24,064 bases of DNA, from the IMG/VR virus record IMGVR_UViG_3300020045_003120, positions 1 to 24,064 of that record. One strand, 5' to 3'. Source of the DNA: a virus. Lineage: Duplodnaviria; Caudoviricetes. Shown piece after piece: positions 1 to 12,114 of this stretch (positions within the stretch are counted from its first letter, which is position 1; each line of letters begins with the position of its first letter). The notes beneath the pieces are model-generated. The model was not told the origin of the DNA, did no database searches, and worked only from the letters and a program-made list of their open reading frames with translations. Made by a program: the position numbers and the translations under genes.

Positions 1-104
1 CAAAAGACGATAAAGGTAAGATTTGCTTTTATTATGATAAGGCAGAATACAGGGATTGGTATAAAAGAAACGGGGGAACTATATTGGTGTCTATTGAAGG
101 TAGT

Positions 105-587
105 TTATTGACTTATTTTATCGCACCACACACTTTTGTAGGATGGATGGTAAATGTACCCGAATCTGTTGTAGTATTCCCTACCTGCGATATACATTGT
201 TGCAAGTGCGTGTTTGGCATCTGAATCAGGAATATGAATTAGCTTATCCATATTCCCATCTTCAAAGGGCATTAAAATGACTTGGTCAAATCCCCAAAAC
301 GTAAACCGCATATCATCGGACATTACAACTACTATATCTCCCCATTCAGGTAAATCCCTGTTTACTGCATGGATTTTAGAATCTGATAAACCCCATTGTA
401 TTGATACGTTTTGATATGAGTTTATACGCTCTACAACCTCTTTGTTGTTCATTGTTGGGTCATCAAGGTCAAGTGTAACGGATACATGGATATTTGCTGC
501 ATCCGCTACATTGTCCATGATTGAGTCAAGTCCTTGAAAGAATCTTTCCGGTCTACCCCGTGTCGGATATTTTATTAGTATCTTCAT
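105..587 (-). CDS. Phage glycosyltransferase (GT-A/GT2-like), probably C-terminally truncated
   Basis: MKILIKYPTRGRP N-terminus, DLDD and SDDM (DxD-like) motifs, SKIHAVN. ATG at 587 overlaps the GroES stop (ATGA). Ends shortly after YKSVWCD. Confidence 0.7.
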   Translation of the reverse strand: MKILIKYPTRGRPERFFQGLDSIMDNVADAANIHVSVTLDLDDPTMNNKEVVERINSYQNVSIQWGLSDSKIHAVNRDLPEWGDIVVVMSDDMRFTFWGFDQVILMPFEDGNMDKLIHIPDSDAKHALATMYIAGREYYNRFGYIYHPSYKSVWCDKISQ

Positions 588-847
588 ACTACTGCCCAAA
601 CATCGTTTACGTGAATCCAAGTACAGGATTTGTTGTTAAAGACTTGACCAACTCCCGAACCTGATGGATAAAGAACAGTTTCGCCTACTTTTACATTGGT
701 TGCTTTATCGCAAGCTACAACTAAGCCTTCTGATAAATCTGCATTGGCTGATGCTGCAATAACAATTCCGTTAATCTCCTGTTCCTTACGTGGCAATGGC
801 TCAACAATAAGCCTTAGATTCAATACTCCCGTTGGTAACTTTTGCAT
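584..847 (-). CDS. groES: GroES/Cpn10-like co-chaperonin
   Basis: 87 aa with the Cpn10 pattern RLIVEP...GIVI...GLVVA...VKVGETVLY...DVWAVV. Confidence 0.8.
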   Translation of the reverse strand: MQKLPTGVLNLRLIVEPLPRKEQEINGIVIAASANADLSEGLVVACDKATNVKVGETVLYPSGSGVGQVFNNKSCTWIHVNDVWAVV

Positions 848-1002
848 TACTTTATTTTTGGTTTATGTTTTACGAAAATTGTTTTACCTGCTTTGGGGTG
901 CGTATTTGGTACGATAATAACAACACCATCTAATTCACGCTTTAGTGTTAGTGGTACTTTTATCGCTTGCGTATAGCCGCTATTTTTATTTCTCTTTTTC
1001 AT
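847..1002 (-). CDS. Small basic hypothetical protein (51 aa, MKKRNKNSGYTQAIKVP...KPKIK)
   Basis: Read manually. ATGA overlap with the upstream gene and TAATG overlap with groES. Confidence 0.6.
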   Translation of the reverse strand: MKKRNKNSGYTQAIKVPLTLKRELDGVVIIVPNTHPKAGKTIFVKHKPKIK

Positions 1003-1331
1003 CCCGGTAATACTTTATTTACTTCCCTTGAAGTGGTTACTAAAGATATGAACTTTAGGGCTTCATCGTATGTTGAAAAATATGCCCTGTCGTTTTCTTC
1101 ATCTGTAAGATGCGATATTGGTGCAATATTAAGCGTCTTTCTGTTTACTGCCCAATATACTTTTCTTTCTGCTGTTCCTGTAAGTTCTGAAACTTTTTTT
1201 AGCTTATATGCCTCCATAAAAGCATCTAAATTGGATTCATATAACGCTTCTCTGTGGTCGAAAAATACTGTCACCCTTGATTTGTAGCAAAAATCTTTTA
1301 CCATTTCATCTGTCCACGGGAAGTTGTTCAT
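999..1331 (-). CDS. Hypothetical protein
   Basis: 110 aa ORF in a tightly packed minus-strand run. Confidence 0.65.
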   Translation of the reverse strand: MNNFPWTDEMVKDFCYKSRVTVFFDHREALYESNLDAFMEAYKLKKVSELTGTAERKVYWAVNRKTLNIAPISHLTDEENDRAYFSTYDEALKFISLVTTSREVNKVLPG

Positions 1332-1343
1332 TTTGTTTAGTTT

Positions 1344-1502
1344 TTATTTTATGTAACAATTTATATTTTCATCTCTCCATGACCTTTGACCTTCTAATAC
1401 ACAAGTATCATATACAAATACTTTTTCCGTAGTATTATTGGTGTAGCACTTTAGGCAATTAAACTTAACATCTGCTTTTTCACATGACGTAAATAAAATG
1501 AG
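1344..1502 (-). pseudogene. N-terminally truncated lipoprotein (Bacteroidota-style lipobox)
   Basis: Manual translation LILFTS-C-EKADVKFNCLKC...NCYIK*. No in-frame start upstream because the frame runs into the GC-rich junction. Confidence 0.55.
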
Positions 1503-1532
1503 TCGCGGAAAAACTCCGCGACAAAAAATGAG
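1495..1532. other. Junction between AT-rich and GC-rich segments
   Basis: Abrupt composition shift with truncated genes on both sides. AAAATGAG direct repeat (1495-1502, 1525-1532) around the hairpin GTCGCGGA-AAAAC-TCCGCGAC (1502-1522). Confidence 0.7.
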
Positions 1533-1537
1533 CCCGC

Positions 1538-2437
1538 TTGAAAGCGGCGCGGCTCGCTCTTGAGCGGCTGCTGACCGAAGAGCCAGCCATAGCCGAAAGC
1601 GCGGCCGATTCCGTCAAGCGCTCCGATGCGTACCGGATTTTGGACTCTCGAAAAGCTACGCCGGTTGCCGCATCAAAACTGCGCGGGTTGCTCGCAAGTG
1701 CATGGGATCAGGCGCACGACGCTGGGTTGCTCGATCAGGATTCGCCCAACTGGTGGCGCGATGTGATGCGCGGCAAGCTCAAGAGCAAGGGCAAGATCAT
1801 CGGCGGCGAACATGCCGGACCAGCGCGGCGGACTCTGAGCATTGATGAGGTTCGCACGCTGCTGGAATGGTTGCCCAACATGCACCAGATCGCGCAGGAC
1901 GCGATCACGCTGTACCTGTGGACGTGCGCGCGAGGCTCCGAGATTCTTGCGATGAGGCCAGAACACTTGCGCGAGGAATCGGGCGTGCTGTGGTGGACTC
2001 TTCCTGTGATGATGACGAAAAACGCAGGAAAGCCGCACGCTGTTGATCTGCGCGTGCCACTGTTTGGTAGGGCGCTGGAAGTCGTCAGGCGCAGGCTTGA
2101 GGCTGTAGGGCCGCAGGGGTGGCTATTCGATGTTGAGGATGGCGGTCAGTACCGACAGCACTACCTAAGCACATACGTCTATGACCACCAACCCTACAGC
2201 GTGAAGTCAGTTGCTAGGCCGCACCGGCTGACATTACCTGTGACGCACTGGACGTTGCATGATCTGCGCAGGACAGGGCGCACGCTACTCGCTGGGCTGG
2301 GGTGCCCGCAGGATGTGGCCGAAGCGATATTGGGTCACATGCCTGCGGGGATTGTTAGCGTCTACAACCGGCACTCGTTCGATTCGGAGCGGGTTGTTTG
2401 GCTGGCTAGGTTGTCGGAGCTTCTTTGTCGTGCGTAA
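1538..2437 (+). CDS. int: Phage tyrosine integrase (P4-like family), N-terminal arm-binding domain missing
   Basis: Catalytic set TCARGSE (R), TKN (K), HDLRRT (HxxR), LGH and VY (Y). In-frame TGA at 1529-1531 lies in the junction. Confidence 0.9.
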   Translation: MKAARLALERLLTEEPAIAESAADSVKRSDAYRILDSRKATPVAASKLRGLLASAWDQAHDAGLLDQDSPNWWRDVMRGKLKSKGKIIGGEHAGPARRTLSIDEVRTLLEWLPNMHQIAQDAITLYLWTCARGSEILAMRPEHLREESGVLWWTLPVMMTKNAGKPHAVDLRVPLFGRALEVVRRRLEAVGPQGWLFDVEDGGQYRQHYLSTYVYDHQPYSVKSVARPHRLTLPVTHWTLHDLRRTGRTLLAGLGCPQDVAEAILGHMPAGIVSVYNRHSFDSERVVWLARLSELLCRA

Positions 2438-2652
2438 CTAGGCGATCTGGTGTTCGGCAACGTGAGCGCAGCCTTTGCCTCCGCTGCGACAGCACGCCAC
2501 GCATCCCGGTACTCATCGGTCATTTCGTGCCAACACAAAGTGTGCTCGCCGTCCAGTTCCGCTCGGTCGGTCTTCTGCCATACCTCGAAAAGCACTTGGC
2601 CGAACTCTGTGCTCGAAACGACGCCAGCCGGCGCGGGGGTGTTCGTGTTCAT
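2362..2652 (-). CDS. Cassette A hypothetical protein
   Basis: 96 aa. ATG lies inside attC-A. The C-terminus runs antisense into the 3' end of int. Confidence 0.7.
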   Translation of the reverse strand: MNTNTPAPAGVVSSTEFGQVLFEVWQKTDRAELDGEHTLCWHEMTDEYRDAWRAVAAEAKAALTLPNTRSPSYARQRSSDNLASQTTRSESNECRL

Positions 2653-2700
2653 GGTGTGTCTTTCTGCGCCGTCAGGCGCGTCTCAGCGAGGGTGTTGGGA
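2599..2700 (+). repeat. attC site A (102 bp)
   Basis: GCCGAAC-TCTGT-GCTCGAAA-CGACGCC...GGCGCG-TCTCAGC-GAGGGT-GTTGGGA. 5- and 6-nt spacers. The extra C in L'' and extra A in CGACGCC give extrahelical G and T on the bottom strand. Confidence 0.85.
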
Positions 2701-3194
2701 TGCACGTCGCGCCATTCCCAGCGCTCGACCGTCTCAGTCCAGCGGGCCATAACCTGTTGCGCTTTACCGCACCAAAGACAAGCCCGCGTGTCGCCATCCT
2801 GCGTCCAGCGCGTGTCGTCGCCAATGAAGTGCATCTTGTGGTCCGCGTCAATAGCGCACCGGCCGTCAGCAACGTATCGCGGCCAGAAGTCGGCCACTTC
2901 CACCAGGTCGCGCATGTTCACCCAGCAGCCGCTTTCGGCTTTGGCTCCGTTGCACAGCACGTTCACCAGTCTCGCGCCGATCAAGTCGCCCAGGTCCAGC
3001 ATGCCAATCCACAACACGCCGTCAGCATCGCGGTAGACGCGGCTTGTCCAGGCGTGGTGCTTCTTGCTGCGCATGGTCAGCCACTTGTAAAGGTTCGGGC
3101 TGTACTTCGCGCCGTTGCGCGGGCTCACTGCGGCCACGTCCAGGCCGTTCGGTGCAATCCCAACTCTGCAATCCATCGAATTCGCTTCGCTCAT
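2649..3194 (-). CDS. Cassette B hypothetical protein (Cys/His motifs CAIDADH, CLWC)
   Basis: 181 aa. Start inside attC-B with GGAG 7 nt upstream; stop inside attC-A. Confidence 0.8.
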   Translation of the reverse strand: MSEANSMDCRVGIAPNGLDVAAVSPRNGAKYSPNLYKWLTMRSKKHHAWTSRVYRDADGVLWIGMLDLGDLIGARLVNVLCNGAKAESGCWVNMRDLVEVADFWPRYVADGRCAIDADHKMHFIGDDTRWTQDGDTRACLWCGKAQQVMARWTETVERWEWRDVHPNTLAETRLTAQKDTP

Positions 3195-3215
3195 CGCTGA
3201 TCTCCGGTGTTGGGC
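3158..3215 (+). repeat. attC site B (58 bp, 59-be-like)
   Basis: TCCCAAC-TCTGC-AATCCATC-GAATTCGCTTCGCTCATC-GCTGATC-TCCGGT-GTTGGGC. Central CGCTTCGC as in aadA-type attC. Confidence 0.85.
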
Positions 3216-3457
3216 GACTCGCGCAGCCTGTCCATCCCCCTGGCCACCAGCTCGATGTCATCCTGGCATTCGACGGCGGCGCATGGGCCTTCGTGCCCCT
3301 TGGCCCTGGTACAGCGCCAGCCAAACGGCGGCAAGTCGCACCGACTATCGGCTTCGTCATAGTCGGTGCAGTCATCGCACCCGTTGCAGCCCTGCTCGCA
3401 GGTTCGCTCCGGCACAGGCCGCCCAACTCTGCAATCCATCGAATTCGCTTCGCTCAT
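3191..3457 (-). CDS. Cassette C Cys-rich hypothetical protein
   Basis: 88 aa with CEQGCNGCDDC and CDLPPFGWRCTRAKGHEGPCAA. Same N-terminus (MSEANSMDCRVG) as cassette B because both are attC-encoded. Confidence 0.75.
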   Translation of the reverse strand: MSEANSMDCRVGRPVPERTCEQGCNGCDDCTDYDEADSRCDLPPFGWRCTRAKGHEGPCAAVECQDDIELVARGMDRLRESPNTGDQR

Positions 3458-3478
3458 CGCTGGCCTTCGGTGTTACCA
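3421..3478 (+). repeat. attC site C (58 bp)
   Basis: GCCCAAC-TCTGC-AATCCATC-GAATTCGCTTCGCTCATC-GCTGGCC-TTCGGT-GTTACCA. 41 bp identical to attC-B (3422-3462 = 3159-3199). Confidence 0.85.
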
Positions 3479-3702
3479 GCTCTCCCATCCCCCGACCCAC
3501 TAGGCGGCAGCTTTGCGCTAACCGGCCTTGTCCTGACCCACTCGCGCAAGTTCTCCACCGGATAGCCCACAAGCCCAGCCGATATTTCTCGCGGCATCAG
3601 AAGCGGCTCAGTGCGGCTCAGTCGCTCGAAAGTGCTGACGGACATTCCGCGAATCATTGCGGCTGCTGTGGGCTTGTCTACTGCTAGAGGCTCGATGTTC
3701 AT
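3454..3702 (-). CDS. AlpA/Xis-like excisionase (winged HTH)
   Basis: 82 aa, AAAMIRGMSVSTFERL...PREISAGLVGY...LREW. Distal end of the early-left operon, near int. Confidence 0.75.
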   Translation of the reverse strand: MNIEPLAVDKPTAAAMIRGMSVSTFERLSRTEPLLMPREISAGLVGYPVENLREWVRTRPVSAKLPPSGSGDGRAGNTEGQR

Positions 3703-5943: not shown

Positions 5944-6591
5944 TTAAGCGGGGGTGAGGTCGTAAAAGTCGCTGATTGCCTTGTCAACTTCGGCAAGGTC
6001 GTTCGGGATTGCGAGGTCTTGAAACATCCCAATCGGCGACTTGCAGCAGTCTTGTCCGTTGGTCTGCGTGCGAAAGGTGTATTGCCCGTTGATGACTTCA
6101 GTTCGCAGAACGATGGTGAAAAAGCCCTCCGGAACGATGTGTTGGTCAACTAGCTTTCCAACGGTCTTCATCCGAACGTTTCCGAATTCATCGGTATTCG
6201 TGTGTGCAAGGATGTAAACACGGCGGCGGTCATCAAGCGAACCGGCAGCATTGAAGATGTTCCAAGCGTTTTTTCCAATGTCGGTGAACTTGTCGTAACC
6301 CTTCTCGCTGGATCGGTTCATCAGTTCATTGACCATGACGGCCTGATAGTCGTCAATCACAACGATTTCTTGCGGAGAGCTGCGCATCAGTTTCTCAATC
6401 AGCACCGGGTCTGCGGTCTGAACCACATTGCCTTCTGACTTTGTGGAGAGCTTGACTTTCCACCCGGTTGACTTGAACGGAAGCGGCTTTCTGATGCACT
6501 GGATCAACAGTGTTTTGCTCGGATCAAAATTGCGAAGGCTGGTGGATTTCCCAGAACCGCTGCTACCTAGAATCAATGTTGCTGTGCTCAT
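5944..6591 (-). CDS. AAA_24/Sak4-like recombination ATPase
   Basis: Walker A GSSGSGKST, Walker B VVIDD, KGYDKF, ILAH, KTVGKL, CKSPIGMF. Confidence 0.85.
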   Translation of the reverse strand: MSTATLILGSSGSGKSTSLRNFDPSKTLLIQCIRKPLPFKSTGWKVKLSTKSEGNVVQTADPVLIEKLMRSSPQEIVVIDDYQAVMVNELMNRSSEKGYDKFTDIGKNAWNIFNAAGSLDDRRRVYILAHTNTDEFGNVRMKTVGKLVDQHIVPEGFFTIVLRTEVINGQYTFRTQTNGQDCCKSPIGMFQDLAIPNDLAEVDKAISDFYDLTPA

Positions 6592-8885: not shown

Positions 8886-8939
8886 ATTAAACACCACGTT
8901 TACACACCATGTCAACAGCAGGTGTAAACACTGTGTGTT
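8886..8939 (-). promoter_or_regulatory. pL promoter with operator sites OL
   Basis: Minus strand TTGACA (8915-8910), 18 bp, TTTAAT. Imperfect TAAACA-N3-TGTTTA sites at 8888-8902, 8901-8915 and 8925-8939. Confidence 0.7.
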
Positions 8940-10041: not shown

Positions 10042-10071
10042 GTTGACAAGTGTTTAAACGTGGTGTGTAAT
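10042..10071 (+). promoter_or_regulatory. pR promoter with operator sites OR
   Basis: TTGACA (10043-10048), 17 bp, TGTAAT (10066-10071). Shares TAAACGTGGTGT with pL. Confidence 0.75.
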
Positions 10072-11298: not shown

Positions 11299-12114
11299 AT
11301 GCGAATCAAGGATTGGAATAAGTTCCAGCACTTCAAAGACCGCAAGCCGCCTTGGATCAAGTTGTACCGAGACATTCTTGATGATGTTGAGTGGCACGAG
11401 CTTCCCGCAGATAGCGCAAAGACCTTGGTAATGCTTTGGTTGATTGCTAGTGAGGACGAAGGCAACTTGCCGGAAATGAAAAAGCTGGCCTTCAGGCTCC
11501 GTATCAACACGAAAACTATTAAGGATCACATTTCGCACCTGTCTCACTGGATTGATATGGATGGATATCAAGCTGATATCACGCCGTCTCAGAAAAATTC
11601 AGTACCTGATGTTAGTGACCACCAAGAGACAGAGACAGAGACAGAGACAGAGACAGAGACAGAGACAGAGACAGAGACAGAGACAGAGACAGAGACAGAG
11701 ACAGAGACAGAGACAGAGACAGAGACAGAGAAGCCGCCGCGCAAGCGCGTCAAGCCTGTTTTTTTTGAAACGCCGGATTGGATCAATCGTGAGCATTGGG
11801 ATGCATGGCATTCCTGCGCCAAACGTAAGAAGGCCACTGCGGAGCAGAAGGCGCTGGCTCTTGAGACTTTGAGCGAATGGCGTACCGCTGGCCAGGACTT
11901 CGCTGGAGCGCTGAAAAACGCAGCGGTAGGGGGTTGGTCGGGGTTATTCCTTCCTAGCGCTCAAAAGGCCGCAAATCAAAGCCTGAGCTTTGCCCAGGTT
12001 GACGAACAAACCCGCCGAAAGCGTTGGGAAGAAATGACGGGTCGCAGGTGGCCCGAATCGGATGCGATGCCGGAATTCATCGACGTTGAAACAACTGTGC
12101 AGAGGATCGCATGA
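11299..12114 (+). CDS. Phage replication initiator (replisome organiser-type)
   Basis: MRIKDWNKFQHFKDRKPPWIKLYRDILDD N-domain, ET-repeat linker, PDWI...W C-domain; lambda O position. Confidence 0.8.
   Translation: MRIKDWNKFQHFKDRKPPWIKLYRDILDDVEWHELPADSAKTLVMLWLIASEDEGNLPEMKKLAFRLRINTKTIKDHISHLSHWIDMDGYQADITPSQKNSVPDVSDHQETETETETETETETETETETETETETETETETETEKPPRKRVKPVFFETPDWINREHWDAWHSCAKRKKATAEQKALALETLSEWRTAGQDFAGALKNAAVGGWSGLFLPSAQKAANQSLSFAQVDEQTRRKRWEEMTGRRWPESDAMPEFIDVETTVQRIA
11626..11730 (+). repeat. Perfect in-frame hexamer repeat (GAGACA)17-GAG
   Basis: Seen directly; encodes (ET)17E. Confidence 0.95.

Follow-up and report, generated by a model that had tools for sequence, protein, structure and literature searches.

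The window, a 24,064-nucleotide stretch that makes up an entire 24-kb virus record (label G000), probably harbors three integron-type cassettes in an array that lacks an integron integrase; their genes lie on the bottom strand, and the cassettes are likely moved by IntI acting in trans and read within a leftward early operon of the phage. The array is a CALIN, consisting of at least two co-oriented attC sites with no neighboring intI in a record whose completeness is 54%. Each cassette has its own attC at the 5′ end because the gene is reversed. Below, other G labels denote related virus records and L labels denote fetched loci.

Genomic Setting of the Array

The window shows a lambdoid layout, with a repressor, a cro-like gene, replication genes, RusA, terminase and portal, and a leftward arm that includes Sak4 and SSB. 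The cassette array is located at the far end of this arm, between an excisionase-like gene (xis) and a convergent phage integrase gene (Table 1). The host is probably a Burkholderiales bacterium, because relatives of the integrase belong to phages of Burkholderia, Acidovorax, and Ralstonia. An inverted pair of repeats surrounds the repressor gene; these probably represent the left and right operators and mark the region of the leftward, pL-like promoter. A promoter and terminator scan of the window gave only chance-level results, and it is the gene layout that suggests transcription of the array from pL.

The left part of the window (1–1540) codes for a GroES-like protein and a glycosyltransferase. 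Its G+C content rises from about 33–39% to 61% near 1530, where the contig may be chimeric or rearranged. A long perfect 6-nt tandem repeat at 11625–11737 corresponds to a Glu-Thr run in the replication protein.

Table 1. Features of the cassette array and its surroundings (window coordinates).
Feature	Position	Strand	Remarks
Phage tyrosine integrase (int)	1538..2437	+	PF00589, phrog_1; not an integron integrase
Gene A, 96 aa	2362..2652	-	Start likely in the attC A loop; Asn frame at the left junction; 3′ end within int
Left junction of array	2438..2458	+	G|TT crossover point at 2452; its core complements R″ of attC A
attC A, 102 bp	2599..2700	+	Found by attC matrix scan; bottom strand encodes the last 15 residues and stop of B, and a weak RBS
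Gene B, 181 aa	2649..3194	-	Conserved phage family; both termini attC-encoded
attC B, 58 bp	3158..3215	+	Bottom strand: 6-residue tail, GGAG, ATGA, 12-residue head
Gene C, 88 aa	3191..3457	-	Small Cys-rich protein; possible alternative start GTG at codon 15
attC C, 58 bp	3421..3478	+	Shares 94% identity with attC B across 53 nt; R′ off consensus
Excisionase-like gene (xis)	3454..3702	-	phrog_66 match weak (E 0.01); attC C supplies the last 6 residues and the stop
Operator-like repeat, 22 nt	8886..8907, inverted copy 10050-10071	.	Repressor gene (phrog_4) between the copies

Anatomy and Polarity of the attC Sites

The original prediction of attC sites with antisense genes holds: three attC-shaped sites are present, and all four ORFs (A, B, C, and xis) lie on the minus strand. 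The sites follow the box order of attC (R″-L″...L′-R′, spacers of 5 and 5–6 nt, an extrahelical base in L″), with the layout R″-5 nt-L″ (8 nt, including an extra C)...L′ (7 nt)-6 nt-R′. The L boxes pair at 6 of 7 positions in attC A and 5 of 7 in attC B, and more weakly in attC C. In predicted DNA folds the bottom strand is more stable than the top strand in all three sites (−18.2/−17.1 kcal/mol for A, −8.4/−6.1 for B and −7.5/−2.9 for C), and the R boxes are paired in attC B only. attC C is the weakest site, scoring under our threshold and included by hand; it may be decayed. The attC B type recurs in three further loci (L001, L002, and L003). At the left end, the GTT at 2452 constitutes a fourth crossover-type site, 14 nt past the int stop, with neither a complete attC nor a clear attI L box.

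In each of the three window cassettes, R′ and the R″ that follows it are exact reverse complements. Overall, 34 of 47 cassettes show this perfect match of core and inverse core, compared with a mean of 5.1 and a maximum of 13 after shuffling. The attC matrix, derived from the fetched sites, gives no match in 241,095 shuffled bases.

As attC sites are near-palindromic, the assignment of the top strand requires a separate check. In control arrays (the class 1 array MH445380, Vibrio and Shewanella integrons, and TJE1) the attC matrix calls the genes sense; class 1 sites score 33–58, and the strand calls for TJE1 agree with those given in the supplement of PMC9892861. A matrix of the L boxes from 16 control sites favors the called polarity for 65 of the 67 phage sites, all three window sites among them, with the smallest margin at attC C; because these controls had been selected by means of the phage-trained matrix, the test is partly circular. 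On this preference, the alternative that the sites have the opposite polarity and carry ordinary sense genes is rejected.

The wider set comes from gene B, for which 299 homologs were found and 120 listed. Fifty-five B loci were fetched, 18 of which carry attC sites, together with three loci that contain the 58-bp site. The scored set comprises 67 sites in 20 sequences, with five duplicate loci dropped, the window included and attC C added by hand; genes were called by a simple codon-based caller of our own. Of 120 calls for flanking genes in this set, 118 are antisense. The arrangement of a typical integron cassette, a top-strand gene pointing toward its own attC, is found in none of the three window cassettes and in 2 of 120 gene calls in the relatives. 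A general attC pattern search returned no viral contigs.

Reading Frame at the Crossover

All four window ORFs cross the GTT with AAC read as Asn, and their C-termini are as proposed. The same holds far beyond the window. Among 58 antisense genes upstream of a site, the crossover is read through by 35, without exception in the Asn frame; another 9 end at the TAA of the core and 14 stop earlier. Including one gene from a set selected by IntI, 36 of 36 read-throughs, from 26 families, are in this frame; codon context predicts 50–61%, giving a P of about 1e-6. A random frame at the crossover had been named beforehand as a refutation, and the frame is clearly not random. Read-through itself is common in some lineages only: in viral loci that carry IntI, 12 of 18 upstream genes stop in the core, 5 stop before it and 1 reads through. 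The frame lock may hold for cassette ends in general, in both orientations, because the three sense control cassettes that read into their own attC all use the Asn frame too. A corresponding constraint on the TGA in L″ is unconvincing (Asn frame in 17/33 and 4/12).

Stops and Starts Within the Sites

The RBS-like words and stop/start overlaps that had been described are all present: gene B is preceded by GGAG at 7 nt, gene C by GAAGG at 6 nt and gene A by a weak GAAAGA, also at 6 nt, and ATGA overlaps occur inside the attC sites at 2649–52, 3191–94, and 3454–57. Stop and start thus overlap at all three window junctions. Starts inside the attC sites are likely for the window genes. For gene B, the sole candidate starts upstream of an invariant body motif are two ATGs, both within attC. 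For gene C, three relatives with an identical head lack the valine of the GTG at codon 15. The ATG of gene A sits in a 31-nt loop of the bottom strand of attC A, with an alternative start at codon 20. Gene A has no attC-supplied stop and extends 30 codons antisense into the 3′ end of int. Its homologs are weak (E 1e-8 to 5e-4), share the frame and begin about 14 residues in; one separate search found none, and our codon-based gene caller also misses the gene. Pfam and PHROG provide no name for gene A or gene B, the ESM Atlas contains nothing at or above 0.9 for gene B, and the DNA of the window attC sites and xis has no match in cultured phages.

In the wider set the idea that genes start inside their own attC stands only in part: 20 of 60 called downstream starts are within attC, and the other 40 lie 13–80 nt past R″. 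Nevertheless, the stop is built into a large share of those sites that contain an ATG. Among 23 distinct sites with an internal ATG, about three of which probably start outside attC, the Asn frame has a stop within −11 to +3 nt of the ATG in 15, as against 3 and 4 for the other two frames. The 15 include four near-copies of the 58-bp type of the window; with these left out, the proportion is 11 of 19. The corresponding counts among the remaining 36 sites are 5 for the Asn frame and 4 and 2 for the others. Four sites keep the stop beside the ATG although the present neighbor gene stops earlier, which fits a built-in module.

A less likely explanation is that the frame lock is a by-product of the making or trimming of cassettes, and that the overlaps are ordinary phage junctions that fall in attC loops, with no selection for swappable coupling. 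The Asn frame of the three sense controls agrees with such an origin. So does a fourth ATGA overlap of the window, at 3699–3702, which occurs without an attC and indicates that these overlaps are the ordinary style of this operon. Furthermore, among the 120 listed homologs of gene B, 53 show neither attC-type end signature and 36 show both. This explanation does not account for the restriction of the stop beside the ATG to the crossover frame, even where the neighbor makes no use of it, and codon usage brings no more than the predicted 50–61% of genes into frame.

Coupling and the Hairpin

The original prediction went further, in proposing that every such attC is a coupling switch, that its hairpin may keep the RBS hidden until unfolded by a ribosome from the upstream gene, and that any cassette order yields a coupled operon. 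As a general rule this is improbable. The ATGA at all three window junctions speaks in its favor, as do the costs of opening the three window starts (10–14 kcal/mol, against 2–5 for four ordinary leftward genes, with xis at 11.1) and the fall of the median cost from 10.3 to 5.1 when the 5′ arm is held open. A parallel exists in class 1 arrays, where, according to the available text of PMC8876359, attC hairpins block translation and short ORFs relieve the block. However, the RBS and ATG of gene A are in an open loop (pairing 0.06 and 0.02), and 19 starts within attC cost about as much to open (10.3 kcal/mol) as 69 others (9.7 kcal/mol; p = 0.52); folding thus lends no support to a hiding of the RBS by the hairpin. 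Coupling in any order applies to the site types of the window and fails for the class overall, in which the spacing of stop and start is tight (−17 to +2 nt) at 12 of 52 junctions (with ATGA at 6), the called start is outside attC in 40 of 60 cases, and 23 of 58 upstream genes stop by the core. The main gain of the antisense design is probably that swaps leave every gene closed and startable, with coupling in a subset of sites and no hairpin switch.

Exchange of Modules Among Relatives

Relatives of the window differ exactly at the crossover. Close homologs of gene B share the same body; the N-terminus varies up to the valine of R″, and the C-terminus varies past an Asn. In seven copies of B the DNA identity drops from 0.83 before the crossover to 0.27 after it. 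B copies thus behave as cassettes, units found beside different neighbors with the break at G|TT. Conversely, identical heads occur on unrelated bodies, and the head of gene A is also found on relatives of B and C, which indicates that attC sites are exchanged between bodies too. N-termini therefore follow the attC and not the gene family, as had been supposed from the shared N-terminus of the window genes.

Cassette genes in the relatives match phage families, with DNA methyltransferases prominent among them, and lie downstream of xis, SSB, or RecT genes. This agrees with the earlier view of cassettes suited to phage operons instead of captured host cassettes. In a quick tree of the B family, with weak support, cassette-type ends are clustered yet fall in more than one clade; no order of events is claimed from it. 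At 10 B loci from genome contigs no attC was found, and IntI was detected in 2 of 5 searched genomes among those that carry B, which is uninformative on the host of the window. A 12-site antisense array in G001 (L067 4145–8341) ends near structural genes, and no phage integrase is seen beside it. One cassette is common to G001 (L067) and L001 and adjoins a different attC in each.

That the repeats are no recombination sites and the modules are swapped by homologous recombination at short repeats is very hard to sustain: attC B and attC C are 94% identical and a Sak4-like annealing protein is encoded at 5944–6591, but the breaks lie precisely at the crossover, between attC sequences that are unrelated, and the match of core and inverse core is instead what circular cassette intermediates would be expected to leave.

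The Recombinase

IntI is absent from G000, at 54% completeness of the record, and scores above the cut-off in 1 of 9 virus records searched; a profile search of G000 with TIGR02249 gave no match anywhere. The exception is informative. In G003 (L068 4127–5140) a complete IntI gene forms part of a phage operon, co-directional with antisense cassettes and beside an attI-like site. With this IntI as query, 26 viral loci were recovered, 13 of which have attC sites, and 34 of 34 gene calls at these are antisense. An IntI supplied in trans is the likely mover of the window cassettes, judging from these sequence comparisons. The G003 gene has its own RBS and a start just within the attI-like site. In KX853513 (L101, virus Rctr41k) an IntI-like gene annotated as xerD is co-directional with neighboring small genes; our scan found no array within the fetched stretch.

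Candidate attI sites, compared by eye with attI1 (in L099), are seen in L001, G001, L005, and G003; the left junction of the window lacks an attI-like L box. The attI-like left ends lie at 2300–2350 in L001, at 3720–3770 in L067 and at the end of gene B in L005. L001 and G001 share a unit of about 31 bp between two GTT triplets, which provides a stop in the Asn frame. The window array begins where the first GTT of L001 lies, 14 nt past the int stop, without this unit. A motif search with the attI-like sequence returned only its two source loci.

Recombination by the neighboring phage integrase in place of IntI is the least credible reading: arrays do adjoin a phage int in the window, L001, and L005, but that integrase differs between loci, other arrays have no adjacent int or lie beside a true IntI, the window copy is truncated and has no IntI match, and the integrases that neighbor such arrays were concluded not to be IntI in the available text of 10.1101/030866. 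The window protein lacks about 130 N-terminal residues (the L004 integrase aligns from its residue 150) and is probably a bystander to the array.

Proposed Mechanism

In the preferred account, cassettes moved by IntI in trans, an IntI of the host or of another phage would act on the folded bottom strand, excising and inserting cassettes at G|TT. A transcript from the pL-like promoter would then reach the array. Read along this mRNA, each attC supplies a short Asn-frame tail that ends in a stop, followed by an RBS-like word and the ATG that opens a short head, such that an upstream gene without a stop of its own is closed by whichever attC follows. At sites of the window type the stop abuts the ATG, and ribosomes could reinitiate at the overlap.

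A broader and more tentative proposal is that temperate phages keep a mirror-image cassette pool of their own, in which attC sites serve as exchangeable start-and-stop modules, fused in frame to start-less and stop-less bodies, and the birth of cassettes is ongoing. As part of the same proposal, ordinary phage genes might be converted repeatedly, with free and cassette forms existing side by side.

Comparison With Known Systems

Phage CALINs have been published; according to the available text of PMC9892861, IntI1 recombines their attC sites through the bottom strand. They resemble the window in being attC clusters without IntI in phages, and share DNA methyltransferase cargo with the relatives of the window. 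The available text describes the arrays as typical or "divergent" and ascribes oddities to mosaicism; within it, the words "antisense" and "opposite" occur 0 times. By the rule used here, the published TJE1 array is sense, all 4 sites of the MW202573 array are antisense, and so is one site in P12002L. The MW202573 array (L103 2069–3738) is a published phage CALIN of antisense type with read-through tails. Between the leftward methyltransferase genes of P12002L (L102 29150–38960) there are several AAC...GTT intergenic elements in addition to the two published sites.

With class 1 and chromosomal integrons the window shares attC anatomy and polarity, the G|TT crossover and the match of core and inverse core. 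In contrast to these systems, the window genes lie on the bottom strand and would be unreadable from Pc, the attC is at the 5′ end of the gene, intI is missing and the termini are often encoded by attC. ORF-11 of attI1 and the short ORFs of attC sites are similar in that the recombination site provides a stop near the next start and allows reinitiation; in the available text of PMC8876359 this is a separate short ORF on the top strand, whereas in the window real genes end and start on the bottom strand of attC in a fixed frame. Insertion by IntI at non-classical GWT sites (10.1101/2022.09.11.507474) offers a route into a non-attI site such as the window junction, under a resident promoter. The available text of that study contains nothing on phage arrays, uniformly antisense cargo or frame constraints. 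No description of an antisense, frame-locked cassette class was found in the literature searched, which mostly excludes subscription journals.

Significance

If this interpretation is correct, phages would swap early accessory genes, such as methyltransferases, by integron recombination and express them from phage promoters. The cassette design would be the reverse of the textbook one, with a recombination site that is also protein-coding and obeys a strict frame rule. Since gene family B occurs with and without attC ends, and one body occurs with many attC sites, the origin of cassettes becomes testable on a single family. Finally, ends encoded by attC would account for the recurring look-alike N- and C-termini of phage hypothetical proteins.
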